Shown piece by piece: positions 2,978 through 62,585 of a stretch of 64,000 nucleotides of DNA (positions are counted from its first letter, which is position 1; the number at the start of each line of letters is the position of its first letter). This stretch comes from a virus. The translations under genes were made by a program, and so were the position numbers. The notes under the pieces are model-generated. The model was not told where the DNA came from, did no database searches, and was given only the letters and a program-made list of their open reading frames with translations. Location: the IMG/VR virus record IMGVR_UViG_3300045988_159027; one strand, given 5' to 3'.

Positions 2978-3010
2978 CGCGCTTCCCTGTGAAGGGAGGT
3001 GCGTTTTTTT
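2978..3010 (+). terminator. rho-independent terminator
   Basis: CGCGCTTCCCT-gtga-AGGGAGGTGCG forms an 11-bp stem (two G-U pairs), followed by T7. Confidence 0.6.
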
Positions 3011-3045
3011 GTCCTTCATTACCATATTAACCTTGTATATCTTTG
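3004..3045 (+). promoter_or_regulatory. phage late-promoter motif, copy 1
   Basis: T7-GTCCTTCATT (3011-3020), N17, then TATCTTTG (3038-3045). ATG at 3064. Confidence 0.6.
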
Positions 3046-3063
3046 TACCAAAACAAACGCAAG

Positions 3064-3327
3064 ATGAAGAAACCGACCAAACGTCTGCTCTGGACGGAGG
3101 CGTACAAGCTGATGAACGCCCGCACTCCAGACGGGAAAAATAAGCCGTTCGACATACGTTTTGTGTGTAAGGACGGAACGATAAGCGAATGTTACAACGT
3201 GCAGCGTGCCGTTTCGTACAACCGCGAAAAGGGATACCGTAAACTGGTAATGCCAAACGGAGATTTCCGTTACGTGTACGACGTACTTATTCTGCAGATT
3301 AACGACACAAAGATATTGGTTAAGTAG
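3064..3327 (+). CDS. hypothetical small basic protein
   Basis: First ATG of the track ORF 3043-3327, 19 nt after the -7 box. Stops 4 nt before the portal ATG. Confidence 0.6.
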   Translation: MKKPTKRLLWTEAYKLMNARTPDGKNKPFDIRFVCKDGTISECYNVQRAVSYNREKGYRKLVMPNGDFRYVYDVLILQINDTKILVK

Positions 3328-3331
3328 TTAT

Positions 3332-5065
3332 ATGGCGACAAACACAAAAAATACAAACCGTAAGAAGTCAAACCCGGGAATAAAGGAGTTCAGAGGAAAA
3401 GTGACTTCACTCGTAGACCGTGGATACCAGTATATCGGCATGGCCCGCGTGTCGGAAATCCCGTCTGTATCTTCCTCGGAAATGATGAAAGGGGGAGGGG
3501 CTATCGGCGGGCTGCCCATTCAGGGCACGTTCAATATCTTCGACAGCAAACAGTCGAATCCGGTGCCGGTCAGCAATGCCGGAACACCCGGTCTGGGTTA
3601 CATTCCCTGGGGACCGGAGAACATGCTTCCGAACACTATCTACAAGCTGGTAGGCAGTCTGCCGTACACGGCAACCGCCATCAAATATATTATTGACCTG
3701 ACCGTAGGGCTCGGGCCGCAGCTTATGTACCGATGGTCGCGCTATGTAAACAGTACGGTAAAGACTGAGCTGATTCCCTTCAAGGATGCCGGACTGCTGA
3801 TTCGCAACCGCATCATGGAGATTCAGGCACAGATTGACCAGCAGAAAGCAGGAAGCGGCGAAGAGCAGGGTGGGGAAGGCACAATCACCTGGTCGCAGGC
3901 CGTCTCCGGAGAGGAGAAGAAAGATACCGCACAGGTTGGGACACCGGAATACGAGCTGAAACAGCTTCGTGAAGACTATCGCACCTGGGAAGAGACAGAC
4001 AAGGAATGGGACAAGTTCTGCGAAAATAACAATCTGGAACTTCACTACCTGAAGTGCATGACAGACGACGCTCACATGGATATTTATTTCCCGACCATCG
4101 GGCTAAGCATCGGACGGAAGGACCAAGAGTGGGACCCGAAAATTGTCAAGTTAGGAAACATTCCGGCGGTGTGCTGCCGCATGGAGGAAATGGACGAACG
4201 GATGCGCATCAACTACGTGTATTATGCGGAGAAGTGGAGAAAGGATGCCACGCCAAAGCTGGAAAGAAAAGATGTGGTGGCCTATCCCACACTGATGCCG
4301 GAAAATATGCTTACGGAGCTTCGCCGTCAGGTGGAAAAGAGTAAGAACCGTCCTCCGAAGAAACGTACCACCTGGTTCTGCTGCCCAAGCTATTACCCTT
4401 CGATGCTGAAACCTTATTACCCGCAGCCGGCCTGGTGGAGTATCTTCCCGTCGATGACTTACGATTACGCCACGACATTGATTACCGACAAGGCCATGGC
4501 CCGACAAAATGCGACCATGTGGGGGAAAATGATTTTCATCAACAACGAATACCTTCGTGCGATGTTCGATGAAATGGGAGCGGATACTACCGAAGCGAAA
4601 CAAGCTGTACGTGACAGTATCTATAAGAAGGTGAATGAGTTCCTTCAACGCCGCGAGAACAACGGGAAAACTATCTGTCTGGACTCGTTTGTAGGTCCTG
4701 ACGGAAAGACGATGCAGCATGCGGTGGAAATTGTGGATGTGCCACAGCTGACAAATTCCAGGGATTTAAAAGAGGAGTTGTCCGAAATCTCAAGCGTGGT
4801 GTTCTTTGCCATAGGGGTTCACCCTTCTTTGATTGGAAGCACACCCGGGAATAGCGGAAGCACCGGAGGTACCTACATGCGCGAATTGCAGTTACTCAAG
4901 CAAAACCAGCTTTCTACCCGGCAGCGCATTTATCTGCGGTTCCTGAAGAATATCTATACATTCAACAAATGGGACAAGCACGGAGAAATAGTCATCCGTC
5001 AGCAGACATTTACCACGCTCGACCGTAGCGCAACCGGCACAGAAGAAACGGAATCTACACTATAA
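3332..5065 (+). CDS. portal protein (probable)
   Basis: 577 aa, no Walker A. The C-terminal region ...FFAIGVHPSLIGSTPGNSGSTGGTYMRELQ... is portal-like (recalled pattern). First large gene behind a late promoter. Confidence 0.55.
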   Translation: MATNTKNTNRKKSNPGIKEFRGKVTSLVDRGYQYIGMARVSEIPSVSSSEMMKGGGAIGGLPIQGTFNIFDSKQSNPVPVSNAGTPGLGYIPWGPENMLPNTIYKLVGSLPYTATAIKYIIDLTVGLGPQLMYRWSRYVNSTVKTELIPFKDAGLLIRNRIMEIQAQIDQQKAGSGEEQGGEGTITWSQAVSGEEKKDTAQVGTPEYELKQLREDYRTWEETDKEWDKFCENNNLELHYLKCMTDDAHMDIYFPTIGLSIGRKDQEWDPKIVKLGNIPAVCCRMEEMDERMRINYVYYAEKWRKDATPKLERKDVVAYPTLMPENMLTELRRQVEKSKNRPPKKRTTWFCCPSYYPSMLKPYYPQPAWWSIFPSMTYDYATTLITDKAMARQNATMWGKMIFINNEYLRAMFDEMGADTTEAKQAVRDSIYKKVNEFLQRRENNGKTICLDSFVGPDGKTMQHAVEIVDVPQLTNSRDLKEELSEISSVVFFAIGVHPSLIGSTPGNSGSTGGTYMRELQLLKQNQLSTRQRIYLRFLKNIYTFNKWDKHGEIVIRQQTFTTLDRSATGTEETESTL

Positions 5066-5103
5066 CATACATTTTTCTTCTTCTTTAGGTTTTATTCACA
5101 GAA

Positions 5104-5143
5104 AAAAATCCCGGCAAAACTTCTGATTTGTCGGGATTTTTGT
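5104..5143 (+). terminator. rho-independent terminator after the portal gene
   Basis: AAAAATCCCGGCAAA / TTTGTCGGGATTTTT forms a 15-bp stem with one G-U pair. Confidence 0.75.
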
Positions 5144-5164
5144 TGATTTTGGCTCAAGTGTTTA

Positions 5165-5259
5165 TTAATAGATTTTTCAGTGGCGTAGTATCGCCACTCC
5201 AGTCGCGCTTAATAGATTTTTTGGTGGCGATACTAAGCCACTGAACTCGCGTAACTACG
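5165..5259. repeat. structured repeat element A (two 44-bp tandem units, each TTAATAGATTTTT plus a hairpin)
   Basis: AGTGGCG-tagtat-CGCCACT lies at 5179-5198 and GGTGGCG-atacta-AGCCACT at 5223-5242. Positions 5181-5216 match 60171-60206 at 32 of 36 nt. Confidence 0.7.
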
Positions 5260-12140: not shown

Positions 12141-12180
12141 TTTTTGTCCTTCAAACTACCGAATCAGACCGCTAACTTTG
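12141..12180 (+). promoter_or_regulatory. phage late-promoter motif, copy 2
   Basis: T5-GTCCTTCAAA (12146-12155), N17, then TAACTTTG (12173-12180). Confidence 0.55.
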
Positions 12181-13224: not shown

Positions 13225-13265
13225 TTTTTTGTCCTTCATTCCCAGTTGTCATATACCTAACTTTG
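13225..13265 (+). promoter_or_regulatory. phage late-promoter motif, copy 3
   Basis: T6-GTCCTTCATT (13231-13240), N17, then TAACTTTG (13258-13265). Confidence 0.6.
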
Positions 13266-13284: not shown

Positions 13285-14286
13285 ATGGATACGACAAACT
13301 ACCAGATACATCTTCCGGCCCTTCCCGACAGCTGGAACCGGCTGTCGACCGAAGAGCTGGAAGAGGTGAACAGACTTTACAAGCGTAAGGAGGCTATGGC
13401 TGCGGAAGGCGACGAGGAACGTGCCGACCGCCTTTTCAAGCTGAAGTGCTTCATGCTTTTTCTCGGACTGAAAATCGTGCGGCGCACCGTGACCGATGAA
13501 AATGGTGAAACGGTGTTTCTCTTCCGGCGCAAAGGGATTCGCCACCTGTTTGAGCGCATTCCCATGCGGGCATGGCAGGTGGACCAGTGGATAGACCAGA
13601 AGCTCGGTTTCCTGGACAATCCTTTTGCACGCACCGTCACTCCCTACGGAATTATCCTCCTTCGTATGGGAACCCTTCGTCTGAAAGCACCGAAAGATGT
13701 GATGTCCGATGTCAGCTTTGCGCAGTACCAGTCCGCACAGAATCTGCTTATCATGTACTGGGATGCACAGAAGGTTCTACAGACGCTTGTAAGGCGAAAA
13801 TCGACCCATGCCGCCATCCGGATGCAGTTGCGCCGCATGAAACAGGCACGATGCCGGTTTCTGGCCACGCTGTTTAATGAATCCGTGCGCGAGACGGGAG
13901 AGATACGCGAAGGACGCTACCTGCGCAAGTGTAAGCGCCGCGTGTGGTCGTTCAACTCCGGGCAGATACAGAAAAACGCCCGCTGGTTTAGCATGGTAGA
14001 AGCCCGCATGTTCCCCGTCATGGTGCAGTATTTTCAGAGCGTGCAGGAAGCCTACGCGCGCATGTATCCGGAGCTGTTCACGCCTAACGGGAAAAAGAAC
14101 GGACGGCAGAACCCTATCAAGATAGAGGTGGAAATGATTAACAACATCATGAAGTATCAGGGATTCAGTGACTACGACGCAGTGTACGACAGCGAGGCGG
14201 TCCGCATCCTGGGAATTATGAATGCCATGGCTAAGGAAGCTAAGGAAATTGAGAAAATGAATCAGAAATACAGAAAAGGGAAATGA
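13285..14286 (+). CDS. hypothetical late protein
   Basis: 333-aa ORF that overlaps the next gene by 4 nt. Confidence 0.7.
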   Translation: MDTTNYQIHLPALPDSWNRLSTEELEEVNRLYKRKEAMAAEGDEERADRLFKLKCFMLFLGLKIVRRTVTDENGETVFLFRRKGIRHLFERIPMRAWQVDQWIDQKLGFLDNPFARTVTPYGIILLRMGTLRLKAPKDVMSDVSFAQYQSAQNLLIMYWDAQKVLQTLVRRKSTHAAIRMQLRRMKQARCRFLATLFNESVRETGEIREGRYLRKCKRRVWSFNSGQIQKNARWFSMVEARMFPVMVQYFQSVQEAYARMYPELFTPNGKKNGRQNPIKIEVEMINNIMKYQGFSDYDAVYDSEAVRILGIMNAMAKEAKEIEKMNQKYRKGK

Positions 14287-49284: not shown

Positions 49285-49350
49285 TGGAAGTTCCTATAAT
49301 CATGGAAGAATCATTGCTGATGGTTAAGGAAGTGAAGAAATTGAAGAAGG

Positions 49351-50317: not shown

Positions 50318-50339
50318 ATAACGCTTAAACAAACAAGTT

Positions 50340-50687: not shown

Positions 50688-50729
50688 CAGGAAAAGTGAT
50701 AGATAAACCAAAACTAATTTGATAAGCTT

Positions 50730-51044: not shown

Positions 51045-51047
51045 CAA

Positions 51048-51272: not shown

Positions 51273-51297
51273 AACCATAAATCAAAGTACATAGCCT

Positions 51298-51595: not shown

Positions 51596-51610
51596 AATAA
51601 AAATAATATC

Positions 51611-52315
51611 ATGGGAAACAAAAAACCGAAATTCAAAATAGGAGAAAGGGTAAGAGTAAAAACCCTTGCAGAAGCAAAAGAAATAAGCTACGCTGTAGAA
51701 ATCAATAAGCCTTTGAAGAAATATTTAGGTAAAAACTTTGTAGTAACAGGCTTTAGAGAAGTAGGTGGAATGTTCTATTATTACTTGAAAGAAAGAAGTA
51801 GTGTATGCGTACATGAGTGCTTGCTTGATTACCCATACGGAGATTTTTCTCACCCTCAGAATCCCAAATACAGTGTAGGTGATAATGTAGCTATTAAAGA
51901 AGAGAAAGATTTGCGTGAAACATTTTCGCGCGAACAATGGTGGTTAAAAGACCTTCTGCCTATATCATTAAGAATATTACAAATATATAGTTCCTATTGG
52001 TTTTGTAATCAGAATGTTTATGAAGCAGAAGTAGAGCCTGGAGTTTATGTAAAAATCCCAGAAAAGGCAATATTGATGGAAGCAGACTGTGACCCATATC
52101 AATGGTCTAACCCTTACAATGTCTGGGTTGCTTTTCGTAAAAAAGAACCGGAGAAAAGTGAATCTTCAAATAACGGGCTGGTAAAATGGAAAACAATGTA
52201 TAAAGACATGGTGGAGTTTATCAGTACAGCTTCTCCCCAAACCAGATCGTTTATTGCAGGACAACTATATGGATTGACAGAAAGACTAATGAATGAAACG
52301 CTAAAAGAAAAATAA
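51611..52315 (+). CDS. hypothetical protein with two similar N-terminal repeats
   Basis: 234-aa ORF. KFKIGERVRVKTLAE and KYSVGDNVAIKEEKD are similar. Confidence 0.65.
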   Translation: MGNKKPKFKIGERVRVKTLAEAKEISYAVEINKPLKKYLGKNFVVTGFREVGGMFYYYLKERSSVCVHECLLDYPYGDFSHPQNPKYSVGDNVAIKEEKDLRETFSREQWWLKDLLPISLRILQIYSSYWFCNQNVYEAEVEPGVYVKIPEKAILMEADCDPYQWSNPYNVWVAFRKKEPEKSESSNNGLVKWKTMYKDMVEFISTASPQTRSFIAGQLYGLTERLMNETLKEK

Positions 52316-52319
52316 TATC

Positions 52320-52493
52320 ATGAAAGAAGAAATAGTCACATACGATATAGCTTTAGCCGCATTGCAATTAAAAGAGTATGAAGTTATCACCGATAAGGAG
52401 TGAAAAGGCTGGGTATGCTCGGTATGTGGTAGGGCCTATGCTCCGAGTGTATCTGAATGTACTGAATGTAATAAAAATAGAGAATCAACATGA
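52320..52493 (+). pseudogene. zinc-ribbon protein, paralogue of 54801-55067, interrupted by an in-frame TGA at 52401
   Basis: MKEEIVTYDIALAALQLKEYEVITDKE-TGA-KGWVCSVCGRAYAPSVSECTECNKNREST. The final stop overlaps the next ATG (ATGA). Confidence 0.5.
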
Positions 52494-52717
52494 TTAAGCT
52501 ATACAGAGCAGACCAGATGCACCCGTCCTCGTCGGTAGTGGCGCTGTCAAGCCTGCAAAAGACTGTCAGGAAGAGCAGAGAGGTAACAGATAGACTGATT
52601 CAGCAGCTGATTGATACTGGCTACATCCCGGAAGAAAAGAAGCCCAAACTCCTGTCTGTCTTCGACAAAGAAATGACCGAGTACACAAAACTCAAAACAA
52701 AGAAGAAAAAAGCATGA
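52490..52717 (+). CDS. hypothetical protein
   Basis: 75-aa ORF. Confidence 0.6.
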   Translation: MIKLYRADQMHPSSSVVALSSLQKTVRKSREVTDRLIQQLIDTGYIPEEKKPKLLSVFDKEMTEYTKLKTKKKKA

Positions 52718-53142
52718 AAGAAATGGAGAAAGAAGAAAAAGCCAAGGAAAGCATACAATCCTTTTTCCTTTGTAAAACGAAGAAATACGGATGCCGTTTT
52801 GTAGAAAAATGTATGTATTGCGATGGGAATAGTGGAGCATCTGAATGTGATGAAAACTGCAGTGCTGATGAATATTTTGCGGGGTTCTGTTCTGGATGGG
52901 ATGCCTTTGACGCATTGATGGGCGGCCTTCTGACAAACGTAAAAGAACGGCAACCTGACCCGAACGAGGAGGTTATCTGCCATATGGTGTCAAACGGAGC
53001 ATTCGTAAGCGGATACATCTACCAGGAAGACGAGAAATACAAAGTAGCCACTTCTCCCGATTTTCATTTTGAGGACTACGGAGATTATGAATGTGACTAC
53101 TGGTTCCCGAAACCTAAACTAATTGAAGTAAACCATGGATAA
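52714..53142 (+). CDS. hypothetical protein (DUF551-like C-terminus)
   Basis: 142-aa ORF with a Cys-rich N-terminus. The ...DYWFPKPKL ending resembles DUF551 (recalled). Confidence 0.55.
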   Translation: MKEMEKEEKAKESIQSFFLCKTKKYGCRFVEKCMYCDGNSGASECDENCSADEYFAGFCSGWDAFDALMGGLLTNVKERQPDPNEEVICHMVSNGAFVSGYIYQEDEKYKVATSPDFHFEDYGDYECDYWFPKPKLIEVNHG

Positions 53143-53764
53143 GGAAGAATATATACACCAATGCGCCACGCAGCTGTTTAACGACCGTATTAGGGACTTA
53201 GGGAACAAAGAAAATATACACTTCTCCATTGACGATATAATAAAAGCAATGTGGACTTCATGGGATGCGTCATACTTCTATCAATGGAAAAGCGTACAAG
53301 CTTCACTCCCTCCGAAAGGACAATGCGTGAACGTCATGCTGGAAGACGGAAGATACACCAATTCCTTCATCATGTCAGACGGCACATGGACCTACAATGT
53401 AAGGCCAGTTGCATGGAGCGAGATAAAACGGCCGATATTCCACCATAAACCAATGATTGAGCTTAAATACCCAGGTATGAAAACGAAAAACATTATCTAC
53501 ACCGGTCCGATATTCGATTATTATAACGGGGAGTTACATCGTATATTTTGCAATTTCGACATTCAGCAGCTGAAAAGCAGGGTGACCGGGAAAGATGATT
53601 CCTGCAACAGGCAGATGATAATTATCAACCTTGAGACCAAAACGGCATGGATAGAGTATGTCGACGAAGAATGTTCCCAGTACGATAGTTTTTATAACAA
53701 ATTCACCTGCGACATTCAGGAAGTGGAAAGGATAATCGAAGAAAGCCAGGAAAATAAAGAATAA
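53135..53764 (+). CDS. hypothetical protein
   Basis: 209-aa ORF. Confidence 0.6.
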   Translation: MDKEEYIHQCATQLFNDRIRDLGNKENIHFSIDDIIKAMWTSWDASYFYQWKSVQASLPPKGQCVNVMLEDGRYTNSFIMSDGTWTYNVRPVAWSEIKRPIFHHKPMIELKYPGMKTKNIIYTGPIFDYYNGELHRIFCNFDIQQLKSRVTGKDDSCNRQMIIINLETKTAWIEYVDEECSQYDSFYNKFTCDIQEVERIIEESQENKE

Positions 53765-53781
53765 TCTAAAACTAGGGACTC

Positions 53782-54102
53782 ATGAAAACAGAATATCTTG
53801 ATGAATTATACCCACATCAGTTAAAAAAACAATTATCACAGCTTGGAGTTGAATTGACGGAAGACCAGTACAGAATACTTGTTAATCGCGGGAGAACATT
53901 TCTGTATGCTCCAAGGGATAGGAAGAATAGCAAATCAAATATATTATACAGAATGACAATATTATTCTACATAATATGGGCTGTTTTTGTCAGACTTGTT
54001 ATCCAACCTATCAAATGGTTGTTTACTGGAACCGAGTATTTTAGCATGGACAGCCCTATTTATAAATTCACTGTTGGATGGGGACGTAAAATTGGATTCT
54101 AA
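53782..54102 (+). CDS. hypothetical membrane-associated protein
   Basis: 106 aa with the hydrophobic stretch ILFYIIWAVFVRLVI. Confidence 0.55.
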   Translation: MKTEYLDELYPHQLKKQLSQLGVELTEDQYRILVNRGRTFLYAPRDRKNSKSNILYRMTILFYIIWAVFVRLVIQPIKWLFTGTEYFSMDSPIYKFTVGWGRKIGF

Positions 54103-54114
54103 AAACATACGACT

Positions 54115-54318
54115 ATGAAGAAAGCATTACCTGATATAAAAGAGAATATTCCTGCACCAGAAAAACAAGAGAAAACAGTTCATCTTCACATTGAAGGAGA
54201 TTTTACTCTAAGGGATGGTAAGATATTTGTGAGTAAACTACAGACTAGCGAGCTGCCAATTACATTATGGACAGATCTGTTCAAAGTTATAAGCGATGTG
54301 TTAAAAAAAGATTTATAA
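54115..54318 (+). CDS. hypothetical protein
   Basis: 67-aa ORF. Confidence 0.5.
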   Translation: MKKALPDIKENIPAPEKQEKTVHLHIEGDFTLRDGKIFVSKLQTSELPITLWTDLFKVISDVLKKDL

Positions 54319-54321
54319 ACT

Positions 54322-54798
54322 ATGTATATCGACGATAAGAAAGCAGTCGTATTCGTACCGAAAGACGAGTACGAAAAGATGAAAGAGCTGGCCAACGCCA
54401 ACGCAGAAGAAATAGAGAAACGTGCCCTCGAAATGTGGGAAACAAAAGCAATTCCATGGCTTAAAGTCTCCATGGAGATACGAAGTAGCGGTGGACGTGA
54501 CATTCTGGATTCAGAAGAATTTGAGTTCAGGACACATTCATACCTGCTAAACCCTTCAGGGATGTTCACTATCAAAGAAGAAGCCAGACAAAGATTTGAT
54601 AAGATGCTTACTGGCTGGGCACGTCACATGATGGAGCTTCAGTTTGGTGAGCACATTTCAAAAATCAATTATATCAACGAACGATGCCACAAGGCAGATA
54701 TATTGTGGAAGAGAATGCTAACCCCGGCCATTTGTGCAGGGATTGTCGCCTTCATTATGTTTGTCTGCTTAATATGGGTTTTACTTAACATACAATAA
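54322..54798 (+). CDS. hypothetical protein with a C-terminal TM helix
   Basis: 158 aa ending ICAGIVAFIMFVCLIWVLL. Confidence 0.6.
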   Translation: MYIDDKKAVVFVPKDEYEKMKELANANAEEIEKRALEMWETKAIPWLKVSMEIRSSGGRDILDSEEFEFRTHSYLLNPSGMFTIKEEARQRFDKMLTGWARHMMELQFGEHISKINYINERCHKADILWKRMLTPAICAGIVAFIMFVCLIWVLLNIQ

Positions 54799-54800
54799 TT

Positions 54801-55067
54801 ATGACACCGGAAGAATACATAAAATCAAAAAGACGTGAAGATTATCCTGGAGGACAACTTTGTTACATTGTATCGGAAGAAACTGCCTTAAAAGCTGTAG
54901 AAATGGCAAGGGAGGAAAAGGAAAATTCAACAAAATTAAATTCGGGGATATTTGGACAGCAAGGTTGGATATGTCCAAAGTGCGGAAGGGTTTATTCTCC
55001 GTTCACATCAATGTGCAGTTATTGTTCAAATGGTAACAATTTTAATATAACTTGTCTTGGAAAATAA
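54801..55067 (+). CDS. zinc-ribbon protein
   Basis: Contains GWICPKCGRVYSPFTSMCSYCSNG. Confidence 0.6.
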   Translation: MTPEEYIKSKRREDYPGGQLCYIVSEETALKAVEMAREEKENSTKLNSGIFGQQGWICPKCGRVYSPFTSMCSYCSNGNNFNITCLGK

Positions 55068-55392
55068 AATTAGAATCCACGAAAGCCGGAAGTCAAAACT
55101 TAAATGGAAGGATATTCCTAAATTTAAGGACAGTTACCGTTGGCCTGTAGTTCAGATACAGGAGCATGAAGGTATCCTTCACTTTAAGTTTTCCGGTGGC
55201 TCCAAATACTCTCCAAACACTTACTTCACGATTGAAGATTACCGGAGATACACAGCTTTGGGAATAATCAATTCTCTTGACGATATAGGTTTCTATACCC
55301 GGCACAGCTACGATGCAGTATTGAAGTTTTACCACGATAGAGGACTGGATTTAGGATTTGCAAGAAACTTTTTAAAACCATCAAAAGCATAG
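55057..55392 (+). CDS. hypothetical protein (non-ATG start)
   Basis: The ORF has no ATG. A TTG at 55057 is the only candidate start. Confidence 0.4.
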   Translation: MENKIRIHESRKSKLKWKDIPKFKDSYRWPVVQIQEHEGILHFKFSGGSKYSPNTYFTIEDYRRYTALGIINSLDDIGFYTRHSYDAVLKFYHDRGLDLGFARNFLKPSKA

Positions 55393-55396
55393 CACC

Positions 55397-55801
55397 ATGT
55401 CAACAGAACGAAATATGAAAAATGAAAACTTTGTCACTTTTGAAGTAGCAAAGCTTCTTCAGGACAAAGGATATAGAGAAGACTGTCGTGCCAGTTACAT
55501 AACGGATGAAACAGGACGGTCGGTGCTAAGCGTATTAACGTTCCACGTGAGGAAGTTCCGTCATCTGTTAAGATATACAAGATACCAGGGTGAATACCTG
55601 GCTCCCACGCTATACGCCGCGCAAAAATGGGTCCGCACAAAAGGAAAGATCCACATCGTTGTCGACCTCAACAAACACGGCTGGTACTACCGCCTGTACG
55701 ACATGGAGGATCTGTCTCTCATATCGCAGATGGACGGATATACCGACACATTCGAGAAAGCTTTGAATGACGGAATAAAAGAGTCATTAACCTACTTATA
55801 A
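55397..55801 (+). CDS. hypothetical protein
   Basis: 134-aa ORF. Confidence 0.6.
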   Translation: MSTERNMKNENFVTFEVAKLLQDKGYREDCRASYITDETGRSVLSVLTFHVRKFRHLLRYTRYQGEYLAPTLYAAQKWVRTKGKIHIVVDLNKHGWYYRLYDMEDLSLISQMDGYTDTFEKALNDGIKESLTYL

Positions 55802-55811
55802 GAATCAGCTT

Positions 55812-56228
55812 ATGTTTACACAACCTTGTTTTATAAGGAATGCGAGAAAAGAATTGGCATTCAATGTGGCAGCATTAGGCTACACTGCAATGTACATGGT
55901 TTTCCGGAACAATATAGAAGGGAATCACCTCGTTTTAGAAGGAGATACCTGGCATTTTACAGACTCGGACAATCATCCACACTGTATTGACTGCGGTGCA
56001 AACGAGGACCTGTTCCTGGCAATAGCAGCTTTACGTGACGATACGGATAGAGGACAATGGTTCGTGGAAAATGATGAAAATGTTTGGCTGCAATGTGTGG
56101 ATAATAAGTTTGTATTTTATACCTGGATAAATGAATCCGGATCTTATGAGGAGAAAGACATTTCAATCTTATACCACAAAGCCACTGTACAGGAACTAAT
56201 CGAACATTTTAACATAAAGGATAGATAG
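55812..56228 (+). CDS. cassette-like paralogue A (conserved ends, divergent middle)
   Basis: MFTQPCFIRN ... IDCGANEDLFLAIAALRDDTDRGQWF ... HKATVQELIEHFNIKDR. Confidence 0.7.
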   Translation: MFTQPCFIRNARKELAFNVAALGYTAMYMVFRNNIEGNHLVLEGDTWHFTDSDNHPHCIDCGANEDLFLAIAALRDDTDRGQWFVENDENVWLQCVDNKFVFYTWINESGSYEEKDISILYHKATVQELIEHFNIKDR

Positions 56229-56231
56229 ACT

Positions 56232-56669
56232 ATGTTTACACAACCTTGTTTTATCCGGAAGAACACACCGGAACTAAGAAAGAAACTGGAGGAACTCGGA
56301 TATATACCATTGACAATGAATCTACTATTGGAGAAAGCTCCTACGCTGGTAGCGATGGAATCTCCTCGTGGAAATCCAATATTTTACGCTGTGATATATA
56401 TTCACGAATATGTCAAGATGTTTCAAAATGAAATCAAATTTATTGACTGCGGAACCAATGAAAACCTGTTCTTGGCAATAGCAGCGTTACGTGACGACAC
56501 AGATTATGGCCAATGGTTCATTTTTGATGCAGAATCCTTTTTAACCTTAAAGAGAGGGGATTGGATGAAATTTATAGGTTACGATGAATGTGTCATAAAT
56601 AGCCCTATGTGGTCTCACAAAGCCACCGTCCAGGAACTTATTGAACATTTTAATATAAAAGACAAATAG
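56232..56669 (+). CDS. cassette-like paralogue B
   Basis: MFTQPCFIRK ... IDCGTNENLFLAIAALRDDTDYGQWF ... HKATVQELIEHFNIKDK. Confidence 0.7.
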   Translation: MFTQPCFIRKNTPELRKKLEELGYIPLTMNLLLEKAPTLVAMESPRGNPIFYAVIYIHEYVKMFQNEIKFIDCGTNENLFLAIAALRDDTDYGQWFIFDAESFLTLKRGDWMKFIGYDECVINSPMWSHKATVQELIEHFNIKDK

Positions 56670-56714
56670 ATTTGCTTACATTGAAGATTTAACGCCTGAA
56701 ATAGAGGACTTATT

Positions 56715-56978
56715 ATGAAATGGGAAACAAAAGGACAATTAGCTAAAGCCTTAAATAACGGCAACAATAAAAAAGTCTGCGATATTATTCTGAGCAATGA
56801 AATGGATATGCAGGCGTGGGACATGTTTGTTTTCGGCATGGATCTAAATAAAAGTGATGATTACATGAGTTTGTATGATAAACTTTTTTCCGTAAAAGAC
56901 GAGTATATAAAGCAAGCAGGGATAGTAGCAACACTTAGATTTCGATATTTACTTTCAAAATTAGGAATAATAGATTGA
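56715..56978 (+). CDS. hypothetical protein
   Basis: 87-aa ORF. Confidence 0.55.
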   Translation: MKWETKGQLAKALNNGNNKKVCDIILSNEMDMQAWDMFVFGMDLNKSDDYMSLYDKLFSVKDEYIKQAGIVATLRFRYLLSKLGIID

Positions 56979-56981
56979 ATT

Positions 56982-57197
56982 ATGGCAAAGAAAGAATTTG
57001 AAATAGGAGAAGTTTTTCAATGTGGACTTGTAAAGCTTAAAGTAGTAAAACAAGAAAAGATTGGAACTTGTACAGAATGCGCTTTGAATGGGTTGGAATA
57101 TTGTACAGCTGTACAAGAATTTATTGGCAGTTGTTACCATGCTGCCAGAGAAGATAAAACGGATATAGTGTTTGTAAAAGTGGAGGAAGAACCATGA
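56982..57197 (+). CDS. Cys-rich small protein, paralogue of 10709-10933
   Basis: MAKKEFEIGEVFQCGLVKLKV ... REDKTDIVFVKVEEEP. Confidence 0.7.
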   Translation: MAKKEFEIGEVFQCGLVKLKVVKQEKIGTCTECALNGLEYCTAVQEFIGSCYHAAREDKTDIVFVKVEEEP

Positions 57198-57544
57198 TAT
57201 TCATACCAGAAGATTTCAAATCTATTCGCATTAAAAAGACCAACATCGTGGCAAAACGACTGCTGGAAGGAGCCATAAGAGAGATAAAGAAATGTCCAAA
57301 AGAATATAGGGAGATGTTACTCAGTCAGTGCGCACCATGGCGCCCGGATGACTATAATATAGAATACAAGGAAATGTCAGCTGGATTCAAGATATTCAAA
57401 AGATACCTGAATATAAAAGGATTCCATGATGTAAAATACGCCGAGCATATAGAACATCCGGAATGGACCGTATTCTTTTATCTCCGGTTTGAAATAGACA
57501 AATACCTAATAGAATCATGCCAAATGCTAACGTCGAAAAGATAA
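57194..57544 (+). CDS. hypothetical protein
   Basis: 116-aa ORF. Confidence 0.6.
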   Translation: MIFIPEDFKSIRIKKTNIVAKRLLEGAIREIKKCPKEYREMLLSQCAPWRPDDYNIEYKEMSAGFKIFKRYLNIKGFHDVKYAEHIEHPEWTVFFYLRFEIDKYLIESCQMLTSKR

Positions 57545-57999
57545 AGGCCAGTCTGCTGAAAGAAATCAAAGGAGTGTTCTGTGAAGGATATTGTCTTTAC
57601 TACAAAGACGATTACTACTGCGGAGCCTGCCCGTTAAACGACACAAGCAACTGGCTCAACCGGAAGAAACCCATTGCAAGGGAAGAAAAACTACGCACCG
57701 TGAATTTCTGCGACGGCTGCATCCATTTCCGCCCGCTGAAAGAAGGGGAGAAGCAAAAGCCAAACAGTCAGCTTTGCGAGTTTGTCCGTCCTCTCAGGTT
57801 CAGGGTAGGGAATGAATACAATGGGGAAGATACAGGTTTCTTCCTGCCCGGTTGCAAGGTCTACAAAAAGGAAGAACGAGAATGCCGCACGTGCCTTCAT
57901 TACCTTCCATCGGAAGATTCAGACTCGGGTGAATGCAGTCTCTATTCTGACACGGCGTACAGCCATTATTTATGCAATGATTGGAAATCTAAAGACTAA
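57517..57999 (+). CDS. Cys-rich protein (multiple CxxC pairs)
   Basis: 160 aa with CEGYC, CGAC, CDGC, CRTC and C..C. Confidence 0.6.
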   Translation: MPNANVEKIKASLLKEIKGVFCEGYCLYYKDDYYCGACPLNDTSNWLNRKKPIAREEKLRTVNFCDGCIHFRPLKEGEKQKPNSQLCEFVRPLRFRVGNEYNGEDTGFFLPGCKVYKKEERECRTCLHYLPSEDSDSGECSLYSDTAYSHYLCNDWKSKD

Positions 58000-58004
58000 A
58001 GCCT

Positions 58005-58430
58005 ATGGAAGAAGATAAAAAACAAATAATCATTCCTCTGTCAGAATATAGAAGGATGGAAAAGAAGATTTCTGACCTTACCAGAATGAATAAACGTAGG
58101 GAGAAAACTTCCTTAAATGGGAAAGAATGTAGGTGGGAGAAAATATATAATAAACACATCGGTAACAATGAATATGTAAATGTACCTCACATCCTGTTCT
58201 TTCACAATTCATTAACCGACTACATTCATTATTTAGAAACAAGGTTAAATGTAGAAGAGCAAGAGAACAGCGATTTAAAGGTAAATGAAAGAGTGCTTAA
58301 AGACGTTTACCTTCAGATAAAGAAGCAAAAACGTGATTTACACTGGTGGCAGCTCTGCCAAAGGATGAAAATCAACCGTATGTTGGAACTAATAGAAAAA
58401 AGAGTAAAATGGACGCAATACGATTTTTAA
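58005..58430 (+). CDS. hypothetical protein
   Basis: 141-aa ORF. Confidence 0.6.
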   Translation: MEEDKKQIIIPLSEYRRMEKKISDLTRMNKRREKTSLNGKECRWEKIYNKHIGNNEYVNVPHILFFHNSLTDYIHYLETRLNVEEQENSDLKVNERVLKDVYLQIKKQKRDLHWWQLCQRMKINRMLELIEKRVKWTQYDF

Positions 58431-58438
58431 AGGGACGC

Positions 58439-58855
58439 ATGAAAGTATGGTGCAGAAGCCGGGTAAGATGGGAGAGAGAAAATCTTTACCTTCTCCCCAG
58501 TGGAGATTTCACGGATGACCAAGGCCGGCTGCACAGGCGCGAAGGCCATACAGCATACGTCACCCTGGAGGATGCGATTTCAGCCATCCGGATGGTGGAA
58601 GAAAAGTTCCTTTCCGATAAAGAAACAGAACTTCAACGGTTAGAATCGGAGAATTACTTATTGCATAAAGCCAGAGAAATATCTGGGGAGGTAACAGATA
58701 TAGAAAAAAATAAATGTATAACCTACGAAAAGACATTAGAGGAGAAATTAAAAGAGGTAAAAATGGATTACATTTTTGGTAAAATTACTTTAGAGGAAGC
58801 AATTAAAATAATTAACGGAGAGAATAGCCTATGCCAACCACAATCAAACGAATAG
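58439..58855 (+). CDS. hypothetical protein
   Basis: Non-overlapping ATG of the track ORF 58346-58855. An ATG at 58409 is an alternative. Confidence 0.5.
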   Translation: MKVWCRSRVRWERENLYLLPSGDFTDDQGRLHRREGHTAYVTLEDAISAIRMVEEKFLSDKETELQRLESENYLLHKAREISGEVTDIEKNKCITYEKTLEEKLKEVKMDYIFGKITLEEAIKIINGENSLCQPQSNE

Positions 58856-59007
58856 TGAGCGTACTTTACCGGGCACGAACCAATAAATACGAGGTGCAGG
58901 CTGTGGCCGAAAAGAATGGCCGGCCATGTGTTATCACGCTGTATTATAGAAATGAAAAAGAAGCAAGAAAACTAAAGAAAGGAGACGTAATAGATGGAAA
59001 CAATTGA
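58831..59007 (+). CDS. hypothetical small protein (58 aa, not in the ORF track)
   Basis: Hand translation gives MPTTIKRIVSVLYRARTNKYEVQAVAEKNGRPCVITLYYRNEKEARKLKKGDVIDGNN. Confidence 0.4.
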   Translation: MPTTIKRIVSVLYRARTNKYEVQAVAEKNGRPCVITLYYRNEKEARKLKKGDVIDGNN

Positions 59008-59598
59008 AGCGATAAACCTGAACAAACTGAGAGATGAAGCCTACCAGAACGCCGTAGAACACGGATGGCACGACGAGGATTTGAGCGACGAGCATTTCCT
59101 TTGCTGGTCATTAGCGAGCTGATGGAAGCTGTGCAGGCCGAAAGAAAAGGTAAACGGTCCGATGTGGCAAAGTTTAATGAATGGCAAGGAAACAATATCC
59201 CATTTAGCGAAGAAACCCGAGTAAGAAGATTTCAGGAAGATTTTGAAGCGTATATAAAAGACAGTGTGGAAGACGAATTGGCCGATGTCTGCATTCGTAT
59301 ATTTGACCTGGCAGGATTGAGGAAAACAAATTTTTCAGACATACAATTTTCTTTCAATTATCGGAAAGAATACATACAGGAAAGAAGCAAAAAGACTTTT
59401 ACCGAGTGGTGTTATGATGTAGTACAGACTATCTCAAAGTATAGAAACAAATATCCTATTGCATATCTGTTTATAGGAATTTTAGAGGAAATATCCTGCA
59501 TGTCCAAAATCAAAGGATTCGACCTCCTCTGGCACATCGAACAAAAAATGAAGTATAACCTCACCCGTCCACGCATGCACGGGAACAACAAATTTTAA
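58994..59598 (+). pseudogene. MazG-like nucleotide pyrophosphohydrolase with a frame break near 59096-59107
   Basis: Frame 2 gives METIEAINLNKLRDEAYQNAVEHGWHDEDLSDEHFLC... and stops at 59122. Frame 1 continues LLVISELMEAVQAERKG...VEDELADVCIRIFDLAG, which carries the MazG-type acidic motifs. Confidence 0.5.
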
Positions 59599-59600
59599 TT

Positions 59601-59996
59601 ATGAATACCGCAGACTTAATAATCAGCATCGTTTTTGTTTGCATTAACTCCACCGCGCTATTCCTGATTTACCGGTCCATATCGCGATGGATGACCCGAA
59701 ACGAGAAGAAAATAGACAACCTGGAGCACGCCGTTCTCAAAATTGACGACTACATAAAATACAGCTCTCACACCATTGACGCGGTTTACATCGACGCACA
59801 GAACAGGCTAATCGAACAGTTTGTGAAAGATGAAGATTATGAGCGGGCTTCCATCGTCAAGAAAAACCGGCAGTTGGTAGAAGCTGCTGTACTCGAAGAA
59901 ATGAAACGCCGCATGAAAGAAAAGGAAGCAGAACTTTTCAAAGACTCAATAAACAAAGAATATAACCAGAAGAAAGGAGACACGAAAGAAGGATGA
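59601..59996 (+). CDS. membrane-anchored protein with a UVR-like motif
   Basis: N-terminal TM helix LIISIVFVCINSTALFLIY. DEDYERASIVKKNRQL resembles a UVR motif. Confidence 0.6.
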   Translation: MNTADLIISIVFVCINSTALFLIYRSISRWMTRNEKKIDNLEHAVLKIDDYIKYSSHTIDAVYIDAQNRLIEQFVKDEDYERASIVKKNRQLVEAAVLEEMKRRMKEKEAELFKDSINKEYNQKKGDTKEG

Positions 59997-60036
59997 TTTT
60001 TAGTCCTTCATAAACGAAGCTTGTACAATAAGTTTT
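59997..60036 (+). promoter_or_regulatory. phage late-promoter motif, copy 6 (degenerate, orphan)
   Basis: T5-a-GTCCTTCATA (60003-60012), N16, then TAAGTTTT (60029-60036). No ORF follows. Confidence 0.35.
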
Positions 60037-60090
60037 ATCTACTGGTCGAATTAAAACGATAATTAATCACAATCTGATTCATTTTTAAGG

Positions 60091-60130
60091 AGGCGTAGAA
60101 GTGTATGTAATAGCACTTTTACGCCTTTTT
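60091..60130 (+). terminator. rho-independent terminator
   Basis: AGGCGTAGAAGTG-tatgtaatag-CACTTTTACGCCT forms a 13-bp stem (one G-U pair), followed by TTTT. Confidence 0.6.
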
Positions 60131-60170
60131 CTGTCAACAAAAGCCGTATTTCGTCACATAAATTCCAAAC

Positions 60171-60248
60171 TGGCGTAGTATCGCCACTGTGGCCGCGCTT
60201 AATAGACACTTTTGCTGCGTAGTTACGCCATTTGAGTGGCGTAGGCAC
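60171..60248. repeat. structured repeat element B (homologue of element A at 5165-5259)
   Basis: TGGCGTAGTATCGCCACT-N5-CGCGCTTAATAGA has the same spacing as in A. Degenerate extra units lie at 60216-60230 and 60235-60248. Confidence 0.7.
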
Positions 60249-60335
60249 GAGACTTTCGGGAAAATCGTTCCGGCACAAAGAGAAAATCGCTTAGAAAATC
60301 AATTCAGTATCAAATATTACAAGTTTTACACACCC

Positions 60336-60475
60336 TTTGCAAAACATTTTGCAATTTGATAATCAGTTAGTTAAGTATCATTTGTAAGCAATTTTGTAAA
60401 GCTTGCGAAGCGTTGGCGAAATTTTTGCAATGAATAACTATCTGATAATCAATTAAAAGTATTGTACTTTTTGAT
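60336..60475. repeat. TTGYAA hexamer array plus GATAATCARTTA boxes and an AAAAGTA inverted pair
   Basis: TTGCAA occurs at 60337, 60349 and 60425, TTGTAA at 60382 and 60394. GATAATCAGTTAGTTA lies at 60358-60373 and GATAATCAATTAAAAG at 60444-60459. AAAAGTAttgTACTTTT lies at 60455-60471. Confidence 0.55.
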
Positions 60476-60618
60476 ATTTTGCCGATTTTTCACGAAAAAC
60501 GAGTTTACAAAATCTTTAAAATAAAAATTTTTCGTAGGGTAGAGAAGGGTGTACATCAGTCGAATCATTTCTTCCTGTGAGCGTCCGAATGGGGAAGGAA
60601 TCCGAAGGGAAACCTGAA

Positions 60619-60688
60619 AGAACGAAAGGAGGGAAAGGTCGGCCTGCGGAACGCGGGACGACAAAGCTCGCCTTTCCCCTTTCGTTCT
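60619..60688 (+). other. long imperfect hairpin, candidate structured RNA
   Basis: AGAACGAAAGGaGGgAAAGG pairs with CCTTTCCCCTTTCGTTCT (18 bp, two bulges). A nested CCTGCG-gaa-CGCGGG stem has a G-T pair that only works on the plus strand. Confidence 0.3.
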
Positions 60689-60826
60689 ACTTCCTTTATA
60701 TCCAACTTCACCGTGTAACAGAGAGAGCTACGCAATGGACATAAGAGAAAAAGCCGGACAGCCTGAAATCTGTTCTTTACCGAAAAAATACGTTTTCTTC
60801 ACTTCAAAATCAATGAACAATCGGCA

Positions 60827-60928
60827 ATAACTATTTATTTATTATTTATTATACACTATAAATAATTGATAATTAAATAAATAAGTATTGAGAAGTGTTT
60901 TGCAAGAAAATTGCACAGCTTTGCAAAA
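60827..60928. other. near-pure A/T tract followed by three helically phased TTGCA boxes
   Basis: 60827-60888 is almost only A/T, with ATTTATT repeats. TTGCAA, TTGCAC and TTGCAA lie at 60900, 60911 and 60921. Confidence 0.4.
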
Positions 60929-61045
60929 TCGTGAAAAACACGCAAAATAAGACCCCAGTCGCTTAACCTTTTTTTGTTGAATGAAATTCCGATTGGTGTT
61001 GAATCGTCCGTAACTTGCTGTTGATTAATTGATTTACGTATATTT

Positions 61046-61693
61046 ATGAAAAGCCACAGCACAAAAAAGAATGTATCTGCACCTCCGGTAATGTATGTCA
61101 AGCTTAGCATATACCTCCGCAAATACATGGAAAGCAGATATGGTAAAGATGTATTGATTATTCCATTTATGAGCCCTATTTACACGTGTATGGAGCAGTA
61201 TTTGGTGAATAATTACAGTATGGTAAGGATAAGTCCAAGATCATGCTCACAACGTATGTTCAACTATAACGGCACATCGGATTTATTTGAAAGAAGTGGT
61301 ATTTGTGTAATGGACACCGCTGAAAAACAGGAATATATTGCCGTACAGATACCCGAAAGAGTGTTTAAGGGTGGATTGATTGTGAAGACTTCAGATAACT
61401 GGCAGCTAAGCAATACCGGGTTTGTAGAGTTCAACAAACTGGTGAAGCGTGAGTTCTGGATGGAATGTATGAAGTTTGTGGATGAATGTTTTACTTCTGC
61501 GCGAATTCAGGGATTGCGTACTACACGTGAGAATGCAATTTCTGATTTTATGGTAGCCATGAATATTCCTATGCAGTATTATGAGAATATGATCAGATAT
61601 TACAAACGAATGATAAACCGCATCCATTCTGAGATTGAAAAAAAAAGAGAGTGGCTTGAAAGCTTAAATGACACCGCATTAACTTATACATAA
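61046..61693 (+). CDS. hypothetical protein (possible regulator by position)
   Basis: 215-aa ORF, the first gene after the gene-free region and upstream of the head genes. Confidence 0.6.
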   Translation: MKSHSTKKNVSAPPVMYVKLSIYLRKYMESRYGKDVLIIPFMSPIYTCMEQYLVNNYSMVRISPRSCSQRMFNYNGTSDLFERSGICVMDTAEKQEYIAVQIPERVFKGGLIVKTSDNWQLSNTGFVEFNKLVKREFWMECMKFVDECFTSARIQGLRTTRENAISDFMVAMNIPMQYYENMIRYYKRMINRIHSEIEKKREWLESLNDTALTYT

Positions 61694-61798
61694 GAAGAAA
61701 TTAATACATGGATAACCTGAAATAATAGTTAAAAAACAAGGGATTTTGTCCCCCTGTTTGTCCCCCTTTATTTTCAACCACAAAACAACACATAAATC

Positions 61799-62239
61799 AT
61801 GAATTGCAGCGAGAATTATTACGAGTTGATAGGCAGCATTGAAGCTTATCCGGACGACGCGGTTACGTTTTCCCGCCCGTTCAATATTGAGAAGAAAAGT
61901 GACAAACCTGATTTTTCTGTGTCGGGCGACCGTAAGATTTCCATTCAGATGAAACCGAAATCGGGGAGCCTGAAGGAGAGCGCGGAAACCAGCGTGGCCG
62001 GCGACTCTTACGAAGTGACGGTGAGTTGGGAGGTAGAGAGGGTGACGCAAGAAACCTATTTACAGCTTGAAACGCTGAAAAACAGCACTAACCATTTGAT
62101 TGTAAGAACATTTGGCGACGGTGAAATGTTTGTGCGTGCCGTGAGCGACGGTTATGAATTTCAGTATGAGGAAGGCGACGGCGTGATTTCGTGCACACTC
62201 ACCATCCGCAACGTGACCGGCGCACAGCGTGTGGTCTGA
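61799..62239 (+). CDS. hypothetical protein
   Basis: 146-aa ORF. Confidence 0.6.
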   Translation: MNCSENYYELIGSIEAYPDDAVTFSRPFNIEKKSDKPDFSVSGDRKISIQMKPKSGSLKESAETSVAGDSYEVTVSWEVERVTQETYLQLETLKNSTNHLIVRTFGDGEMFVRAVSDGYEFQYEEGDGVISCTLTIRNVTGAQRVV

Positions 62240-62282
62240 CATCTACACCTTATTATATATATTGCTTTTTTCTTTCCGTTGG

Positions 62283-62322
62283 AATGCCGTTCCTGCGTAC
62301 GTGTGTGGGGCGGCATTTTTTC
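62283..62322 (+). terminator. possible terminator
   Basis: AATGCCG ... CGGCATT followed by a T-run. The loop is long (21 nt). Confidence 0.35.
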
Positions 62323-62544
62323 TTTGGGCCTTTCTTTTTGTGCGCGTTTTTCTTTTGTCCTGCAGGTAAATCTTCATTATTGTATTTGTGACATTCTTCA
62401 ATTTCTTTGCGTCCGCCGCAAATTTCTTTTTTTCGCGCGAAGTCCGTGTGTTTTACAACATGCTCATTCTTAGCAGGTTTTTATTTGCGGAGAAAATCCG
62501 GCTTTCCATCCGGATAAATCTGTGATTCACGCGGTTAATCTTTC

Positions 62545-62585
62545 TTTTGTGTCCTTCATTACCGCTTCGCGCGTGCGTAATTTCG
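62545..62585 (+). promoter_or_regulatory. phage late-promoter motif, copy 7
   Basis: TTTTgt-GTCCTTCATT (62551-62560), N17, then TAATTTCG (62578-62585). Confidence 0.5.

Follow-up and report, generated by a model that had tools for sequence, protein, structure and literature searches.

A candidate late-promoter class in a temperate Bacteroidaceae phage lineage: a T-tract and a GTCCTTC block at fixed distance from a host-type -7 box

The 64,000-nucleotide (nt) stretch of the gut Bacteroides phage record IMGVR_UViG_3300045988_159027 (the window, to which all coordinates refer) carries a repeated element composed of a T-run, the 10-mer GTCCTTCATT, a spacer of 17 nt and an octamer, mostly TAACTTTG. 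Six good copies and one decayed copy were found, all on the + strand and the good ones close upstream of virion or lysis genes. Copy 1 (3004-3045) combines seven T, the 10-mer (3011-3020) and the octamer TATCTTTG (3038-3045), and is followed by a gene for 87 amino acids (aa) at 3064-3327 and by the portal gene (3332-5065), which was called by similarity to distant portals only. Copy 2 (12141-12180; five T, GTCCTTCAAA and TAACTTTG) precedes the ATG of a 341-aa protein at 12199. Copies 3, 4 and 5 all join the exact 10-mer to TAACTTTG and differ in the length of the T-run. Copy 3 (13225-13265, six T) stands before the ATG at 13285 of an operon (13285-20577) with a tail protein gene (16249-17409), copy 4 (22530-22572, eight T) before the holin gene (22616-23014) and a lysis block with an amidase gene (24313-24885), and copy 5 (33474-33515, seven T) before the tape-measure gene (33535-39309) and distal tail genes reaching to 42582. 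Copy 6 (62545-62585; TTTTGT, the exact 10-mer and TAATTTCG) heads the gene of an S49 head-maturation protease/scaffold protein, which starts at 62615 and runs past the window end. The decayed copy (59997-60037) reads TTTTTA, GTCCTTCATA, 17 nt, AAGTTTTA. The holin was assigned by phrog_1299 and the amidase by Amidase_3, and the assignments of tape measure, tail protein and S49 protease were confirmed. The portal, tail, holin/lysis, tape-measure and protease genes thus bear out a sequence-only reading of this DNA, according to which the motif heads each virion or lysis block of the window.

The exact 10-mer occurs five times, on the + strand only (3011, 13231, 22538, 33481 and 62551). Two one-off variants were found in addition, GTCCTTCAAA at 12146 (ending in CAAA) and GTCCTTCATA at 60003 (ending in CATA), so that the seven copies described before, one of them as degenerate, were retained as six good ones and a decayed one, with the 10-mer, called invariant there, exact in only five. 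Using the composite GTCCTTCA-N19-TANNTTTG with at most 1 mismatch, 6 matches were obtained where 0.03 would be expected from shuffled sequence, and the - strand had none; a looser composite scan of the window gave no further convincing site. The distance between 10-mer and octamer was 17 nt in 6/6 good copies, as had been claimed. The octamer is TAACTTTG in 4 copies, TATCTTTG at 3038 and TAATTTCG at 62578. Its equation with the Bacteroidota -7 box TAnnTTTG proved correct, with an exact match in 5 of the 6 copies (all except TAATTTCG); TAACTTTG is, however, the majority form of a box which is not invariant. The ATG follows the end of the box by 18, 18, 19, 43, 19 and 29 nt in the order of position, hence close downstream as stated earlier, with a measured range of 18-43 nt instead of 19-44 nt. 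A run of 5-8 T precedes each copy, in the form TTTTGT at 62551. All seven GTCCTTCA 8-mers of the + strand are intergenic, although intergenic DNA makes up 11% of the window (Fisher p = 2e-4), while the six on the - strand all lie within genes and lack both T-tract and box. Reading TTTTTTGTCCTTCATT revealed no inverted repeat; the element is asymmetric.

According to Bayley et al. (2000; summarised in PMC7366714), promoters of the Bacteroidota primary sigma factor (sigma-ABfr) consist of a -33 TTTG and a -7 TAnnTTTG. The -33 element is weakly conserved in Bacteroidota generally (PMC7366714); its TTTG is expected about 19 nt (18-21 nt) from the -7 box on the upstream side. The element resembles these promoters in its downstream octamer, which corresponds to the -7 box and varies in a host-like manner before TTTG (TAAC, TATC, TAAT, TATT, TAAA), and in its short, A-rich leaders devoid of a Shine-Dalgarno sequence. 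It differs from them upstream. No TTTG was found at a spacer of 17-22 nt from the box in the motif promoters, where the canonical position reads TTCA, and a T-tract plus GTCCTTC block stands at one fixed distance instead, in agreement with the earlier proposal of a phage-specific block in place of the -33 TTTG. The TTTG formed by the T-tract and the G of the motif is 26 nt away from the box, compared to 18-20 nt for the TTTG of three ordinary window promoters. With the box set at about -12 to -5, the 10-mer would occupy about -39 to -30 and the T-run about -46 to -40. An ATG located 14-45 nt downstream of the box, the range found when relatives are included, is compatible with a transcription start just past the box. 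Plain TAnnTTTG boxes without the 10-mer were likewise recovered as listed in the sequence-only reading (12108, 29188, 29639, 33439), one of them at 29737 rather than 29744. We also considered the T-tract as the tail of an intrinsic terminator. This was rejected for 6/7 copies, as no G+C-rich hairpin precedes the T-run: a terminator-type hairpin directly 5' of it was found only for the copy at 3011 (-23.8 kcal/mol, z = -7.8), the other six giving z between -1.7 and +0.8. Several relatives combine a hairpin with the T-run. An Rfam scan of the window yielded no match.

The conservation of the element was analyzed in related phages. Searching IMG/VR with the exact string GTCCTTCATT-N17-TAACTTTG returned more than 112 viral contig stretches. 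The fetched loci were re-scanned for GTCCTTC and a box at the correct distance with at most 1 mismatch, so that the 100% conservation of the core is given by construction. This re-scan identified 209 distinct sites falling into 44 spacer/leader classes, of which about 38 possess a T-tract and an ATG 14-45 nt downstream. Upstream of the core, T was found with a frequency of 73-86% at 4 of 6 positions and of 64% at position -2, and GTCCTTC, on which the sites had been selected, is followed by A (93%), T (80%) and T (75%). The spacer positions are near random across the classes, while the box composition over the 44 classes is T93 A100 A82 C77 T100 T100 T95 G89, and the 17-nt spacing is kept in 73 of 78 sites. 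The same genes carry the element with unrelated spacers in different phages: four were found before tape-measure orthologues (ttgctttttacgatagg, tccacatttcggatgcc, ctcgtttttctcatgca, tggagtctggctacctg), at least five before orthologues of the 333-aa gene at 13285, two before the portal operon and several before the holin, and the orthologue of copy 2 in the locus L104 also has a different spacer. In the locus L097 a divergent back-to-back pair was found, each copy facing its own gene, an arrangement which shows the putative promoter unit to be directional with its gene.

More distant relatives were reached independently of the motif, L127, L225 and L226 via homologues of a LuxR-type protein (about 50% identity) and L322 and L325 via homologues of a 215-aa protein (52% identity); both proteins are described below. 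All five carry a T-tract, GTCCTT(C), 20 nt and TAnnTT(T/C)G before genes for the protease, a 340-356-aa protein and HU-HIG proteins, and the S49 protease promoter is retained in each of them, at a protein identity to the window of only 25-51%. Judged from these sequences, the true core is the T-run plus GTCCTTC, since positions 8-10 of the 10-mer drift in the distant relatives. At the other end of the scale, a near-identical relative of 90 kb, IMGVR_UViG_3300045988_160270, was rebuilt to 97% from overlapping loci. It possesses 8-9 copies, on the + strand only and each before a late-type gene, including an extra copy before a 400-aa protein encoded beyond the capsid region, and a variant copy (TAATTTAG, 18-nt spacing) that is followed after 83 nt by a 160-aa HU-HIG gene. 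Among catalogued phages and plasmids, a nucleotide search detected no close relative of the window, and searches with the portal and the LuxR-type protein gave distant matches only. The anatomy of the element, its position and orientation relative to the late genes and its persistence despite unrelated spacers and in distant relatives are direct observations, as is the rarity in cellular genomes, to which we now turn.

One genome per species was used for this comparison (185,579 species, 596 Gb). The exact composite was found 14 times, compared to about 17 matches expected by chance on a uniform-composition estimate. Six of the 14 matches lack a T-tract and a gene context. Three lie on short phage-like contigs binned into metagenome-assembled genomes (MAGs; L114, L118, L126), with relatives of tape-measure, holin-like or lysis proteins. 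The remaining five belong to a single paralogous cassette, about 100 bp long, in Bacteroidaceae MAGs from deer gut (L113, L119, L121, L123, L125), and because they are paralogous copies with a conserved spacer they count as one independent instance. This cassette starts with ...GGAGGCGTTTATCTGC.ACCTTGACGTTTCGTGG, ends with TTTTTCT-GTCCTTCATT-N17-TAACTTTG and precedes chromosomal-looking genes. In one arrangement a 66-aa open reading frame (ORF) comes first and then a long ORF which, judged from its sequence, is TonB-receptor-like; in the other the gene is a 578-aa lipoprotein-like ORF. A captured phage promoter, a regulon of the host or chance could account for the cassette. The frequency of the 10-mer in coding regions and in non-phage Bacteroides DNA had been named beforehand as a check; the window copies are intergenic, and the composite is at about chance level in cellular genomes. 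GTCCTTC sites of this kind were also not found in the Bacteroides phages Versailles and B40-8, and the start-site map of B. thetaiotaomicron contains only the primary-sigma motif and the near-palindromic PM2, nothing resembling the element (PMC7366714). Because it is near chance in cellular genomes, absent from Versailles and B40-8 and unreported in the start-site map, we conclude that the element is specific to this phage lineage and not a general promoter feature of Bacteroides.

Repeated upstream sequences are known from these two phages as well. Versailles and B40-8 resemble the window in combining a phage-specific repeat with the host -7 box. In B40-8 (L228) five cassettes of about 90 nt were observed at 66, 16765, 18975, 20961 and 32541, consisting of GTTAAA repeats, a -33 element, the -7 box and a conserved leader, and possibly these are the source of the engineered Bacteroides phage promoter of the P_BfP1E6 family. 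They differ from the window in their GTTAAA repeats and TTG-containing -33 region, which stand before early-type genes. The Versailles repeat, in contrast, is the palindrome ATGTGTT-N5-AACACAT. In Versailles (L224) it was observed at 4630, 10765, 20390 and 33470, upstream of a cro-like and an early gene as well as of the terminase region and the head block.

Outside the Bacteroidota, middle promoters of phage T4 carry a MotA box at -30 and retain the sigma-70 -10 element, the sigma factor being appropriated by MotA and AsiA. Like them, the element keeps a -10-type host element, replaces the -35 by a phage-specific asymmetric box at fixed distance, and heads many genes of one temporal class. 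Unlike them, it belongs to the late structural and lysis class, not the middle class, and to a host of another phylum with another sigma architecture. Late promoters of temperate phages may also depend on activators, as with Ogr of P2, B of 186, Delta of P4, and C and Mor of Mu. Here again several late operons of a temperate phage share an upstream activator-type site and a poor -35. The sites of these activators, however, are dyad-symmetric and located at about -55 (Ogr) or -30 to -55 (C, Mor), compared to the asymmetric, T-rich element of the window. Neither a small zinc-finger activator nor one of the Mor/C type could be recognised here, the sole protein with a cysteine cluster being the LuxR-type protein, and the scanned phage proteins gave no match to the MotA, AsiA, Ogr, Mor or C families. 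With a kept -10-type box, a replaced -35, a fixed distance between them and one gene class downstream, the element has the architecture of an activator or sigma-appropriation promoter. Such systems are known in kind from other phages; new are the sequence and its fit to the -33/-7 architecture of the Bacteroidota. A literature search with the motif string matched only miR-205 primers, and the literature searched described no late-promoter class or late activator for Bacteroides phages.

Which protein might read the element? The sequence-only reading had named three candidates, none of which gained support. The LuxR/GerE-type protein (44375-45010, + strand) is encoded second in the early operon and combines a novel N-terminal domain and a cysteine cluster with a C-terminal helix-turn-helix (HTH). 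Its family of proteins of about 205 aa shares five invariant cysteines. In the AlphaFold2 (AF2) model (predicted local distance difference test, pLDDT, 87) only the C-terminal 65 residues match known folds, of the NarL/GerE class, and because a sigma region 2 fold is missing from the model the protein was rejected as a sigma factor. A distant homologue in Versailles, likewise the second gene of an early operon, is annotated as a sigma factor. Alignment with GerE and ComA placed the recognition helix at YSNIDNMRKR in the window, PGTVKKQREQ in L127, RRTAEWTGRQ in L226 and KRTTEKLGSE in L225. The helix thus falls into at least four sequence classes between conserved flanking helices, and all four phages keep T-tract and GTCCTTC. 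As leading reader the protein was rejected for this variation at an invariant late-promoter core (L127, L225, L226): a DNA-reading helix which diversifies while its site stays the same makes a genuine HTH protein an unlikely reader. A lux-box-like dyad is also missing at the element, which contains no inverted repeat. The small HTH-like protein of 101 aa at 25504-25809 (+ strand) gave sub-threshold DnaA_C and HTH matches only and belongs to the lysis operon headed by copy 4 (22538); as a product of this late operon it cannot be the primary switch. For the conserved 215-aa protein at 61046-61693 (+ strand), just upstream of the head operon, neither a Pfam or PHROG match nor a DNA-binding fold match was obtained. 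Its identity across distant relatives is 37-52%, a pair of C-terminal helices being invariant, and its model from a shallow alignment (pLDDT 72.5) found no match in the PDB; the only viral match was an uncharacterised protein of the Polaribacter phage Leef_1, whose portal also resembles that of the window. A search of metagenome contigs for distant relatives of its gene returned only near-identical phages. The 215-aa protein is possibly small-terminase-like, which fits its placement between a repeat-rich non-coding region of 1 kb and the head genes. Taken together, the reader is probably phage-encoded and probably not the LuxR-type protein; the 215-aa protein, the HU-HIG proteins and a 126-aa protein may be considered as candidates.

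The HU-HIG proteins are connected to the decayed copy. At 60003 a proper box is missing, the sequence being AAGTTTTA at 17 nt or TAAGTTTT at 16 nt. In most relatives the box TAGATTTA is present at this position, with a hairpin leader and then an HU-HIG gene of 150 aa downstream of it, and the window and a set of relatives represent a deletion variant in which the gene is gone and the box decayed. By this comparison the copy is the remnant promoter of a lost HU-HIG gene and not a functional orphan; that no ORF follows it in the window was correctly noted before. HU-HIG genes occur as two paralogue types, each under a variant motif copy in relatives, and the second paralogue is found elsewhere in IMGVR_UViG_3300045988_160270. 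They could encode late DNA-packaging proteins or autoregulated readers. Examples were observed at L240:6905-7458, L326:17064-17629, L127:17380-17918 and L325:960-1498, with an acidic/glycine-rich tail ending in GGGGF(T/N/S). The neighboring 60040-61045, between the early operon and gene 61046, is 1 kb without ORFs and contains the perfect palindrome TTGCAAAACATTTTGCAA and five TTGCAAAA words; at about 60620-60690 a purine/pyrimidine hairpin of differing sequence in relatives precedes the conserved CTTCCTTTATATCCAAC...GAGCTACGCAA. The region could be a pac/cos site, a regulatory region or a structured RNA. The word repeated upstream of the 215-aa gene differs by phage (TTGCAAAA in the window, TTAACAAAA in L127, TTGCGGAA/TGCGCAAA in L225/L226), and a variable regulator might act at these phage-specific repeats, the CI-like and Cro-like proteins being equally variable.

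The lineage can be described as temperate Bacteroidaceae phages whose genomes measure roughly 90-110 kb and include plasmid-type genes. A probable tyrosine integrase gene lies at 21134-22273 (- strand), its family match being assigned by size and position; Phage_integrase and SAM-like domains were found in one member of the scanned set. Further temperate markers are a divergent CI-like/Cro-like switch and Rha and Ant genes. The CI-like repressor candidate (42571-43860, - strand) has a Cro/C1 HTH and diverges from the early operon (43998-59996). Beside an iteron-like array of ATAAAAGTATTTTTG words (2270-2400) a ParA-family ATPase gene was observed (1374-2186, - strand), and the flank upstream of the window in a relative (L279/L374) encodes a Rep3-type initiator and proteins with a DnaA_N domain. 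Together with the integrase gene, ParA, the array and the Rep3/DnaA_N proteins suggest a phage able to integrate and to replicate as a plasmid. Comparison with the loci L001-L453 revealed strong mosaicism, conserved blocks at about 10.8-15.0, 22.3-28.4 and 38.7-55 kb alternating with replaced segments. A hairpin island of 129 bp (32294-32422, GCAGCAAACC...GGTTTGCTGC) is conserved in relatives which are otherwise dissimilar there and in which the tape-measure promoter follows it after about 40 nt. In the window the two are separated by an insertion of about 1 kb (32423-33440), which carries two ORFs and a plain promoter in reverse orientation (33439). Tandem paralogous pairs with near-identical N-termini were observed at 7328-7969/7980-8642 (MTANDYSIEKYVSE...) and 55812-56228/56232-56669 (MFTQPCFIR...). 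IS605-family TnpA/TnpB (Cas12f-like) insertions were observed in the early regions of relatives (L131:6207-7892, L132, L225:16786-18114, the L374 region). The last 50 nt of IMGVR_UViG_3300045988_160270 (end of L326) are the Illumina adapter AGATCGGAAGAGCACACGTCTGAACTCCAGTCAC, reflecting an assembly artefact or a physical genome end.

What, then, is the element? We consider it probable, with moderate confidence, that it represents the late (virion and lysis) promoter class of this temperate Bacteroidaceae phage lineage and is read by a conserved factor. Its asymmetry, the rigid spacing and the host-like variation of the box suggest that the host holoenzyme reads the box and a specific factor the upstream block. 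The integrase gene identifies a temperate phage, whose lysis promoter has to be silent in lysogens, and factor dependence is favored because the holin promoter of such a phage cannot be constitutively strong. Several points weigh against this interpretation. Transcription start at the element, late timing and the need for a dedicated factor are what we infer, and a -7 box with an A/T-rich upstream tract alone might be active. Most of the relatives stem from a single large metagenome data set and a single phage lineage, and the term family-wide is accordingly confined to this lineage. Neither Sigma70_r2 nor AraC nor any other obvious activator family turned up in the window, 20 kb of its flanks or the 97% of IMGVR_UViG_3300045988_160270, Sigma70_r4 and r4_2 being matched only in the LuxR-type protein; this sole sigma-4/LuxR-like protein does not covary with the motif. 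The phage factor redirecting host RNA polymerase postulated in the sequence-only reading stays the most economical explanation of a conserved promoter-like unit, with a trans-acting reader that is deduced and named candidates that found no support.

The element may alternatively be a strong promoter without any factor, in which a UP-like T-tract cooperates with the -7 box, GTCCTTC contacts region 4 of the host sigma or the alpha subunit, and timing is set otherwise. The canonical box and the resemblance of the T-run to a UP element fit such a promoter, as does the -33 element which is not always detectable in Bacteroidota (PMC7366714). A precedent is provided by P_BfP1E6, a promoter of a Bacteroides fragilis phage described as carrying UP elements and a -7 box, which is reported to be strong and constitutive in phage-free Bacteroides (bioRxiv 10.1101/2025.03.18.644028). 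Invariant GTCC bases are unexpected in a UP element, however, the near-chance frequency of the composite in cellular genomes indicates that host promoters do not use it, and a constitutive promoter at copy 4 before the holin of an integrase phage would kill lysogens. As the repeated promoters of B40-8 also differ in sequence and have a TTG-containing -33 region, we give this explanation only a modest chance. Binding of the 10-mer by the LuxR/GerE-type protein in the manner of sigma region 4, followed by recruitment of polymerase, is improbable to us. It is the sole window protein with a sigma-4/GerE-type HTH, occupies the second place of an early operon adjoining the repressor switch, as does its Versailles homologue, is the best-conserved protein shared with distant relatives (51%) and accompanies the motif in every long contig sampled. 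This co-occurrence is confounded by common descent, though, and four recognition-helix classes face one core site; proteins of this type normally bind dyads as dimers, compared to an element without a dyad, and a sigma region 2 fold is missing. That a phage alternative sigma factor reads both parts, GTCCTTC as -35 and TAnnTTTG as -10, appears still a little less probable. A strict 17-nt spacing and an asymmetric upstream element are typical of the sigma-70 family, and highly divergent members such as T4 gp55 would escape Pfam; against this stand the lack of a Sigma70_r2 match in the window, flanks and rest of the relative mentioned above and a box which is the host primary-sigma consensus and varies as host boxes do.

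A factor encoded by the host was given the same low probability as the LuxR-type protein. The phage would then mimic a host regulon and derive its late timing from a host signal, for which an invariant core across phages with strongly diverged regulators and the composite before chromosomal-looking genes in deer-gut MAGs can be quoted. The MAG sites, however, are one independent instance, the frequency is otherwise at chance level in the 185,579 species genomes, and the motif does not appear in the B. thetaiotaomicron start-site map (PMC7366714). Very improbable, finally, is that the element is a prophage repressor operator or mainly a recombination linker between mosaic modules. An operator overlapping the -33 region would be well placed for a repressor to block polymerase; yet the site is asymmetric and heteroimmune repressors should have different operators. 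As the CI-like protein is only 22-25% identical in motif-sharing relatives, we argue that the element is not its operator. Similarity breakpoints do accumulate, with 100 at 60003, 24 at 3011 and 10 at 13231 compared to about 4 expected per 121 nt. They pile up at 60003 and 3011 and not at every promoter copy, with none at 33481 and 62551, and use as a linker would be a by-product of conserved promoters.

Returning to a late promoter read by a conserved factor, the following sequence of events is proposed. A conserved sequence-specific protein would bind the T-run and GTCCTTC(A)(T)(T). Acting as a class-II-type activator, or else by appropriating sigma region 4, the bound protein would recruit or retarget the RNA polymerase holoenzyme of the host, with the host primary sigma reading the retained -7 box and the docking site replacing the -33 TTTG. 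Structural and lysis blocks would be off in the lysogen and in early infection, and would fire together late despite their scatter and the mosaicism of the genome. A more far-reaching version, which we regard as possible rather than likely, is a sigma-appropriation-like or class-II system new to the Bacteroidota, in which a conserved phage protein of unrecognised fold, with the 215-aa protein or one HU-HIG paralogue as candidates, reads T-tract-GTCCTTC and retargets region 4 of the unusual primary sigma. If true, it would constitute a compact, orthogonal, all-or-none late switch transferable into Bacteroides as a genetic tool.

To our knowledge, very little is known about the timing of gene expression in Bacteroides phages. 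An element of about 45 bp which marks late transcription units would aid the annotation of genomes consisting mostly of uncharacterised proteins, in a lineage common in the human gut, and would serve as bait for the factor redirecting the atypical RNA polymerase of the Bacteroidota. If factor-dependent, it would provide an orthogonal inducible promoter for Bacteroides engineering. For the phages themselves, the shared element may be the way in which scattered mosaic structural modules stay co-regulated.

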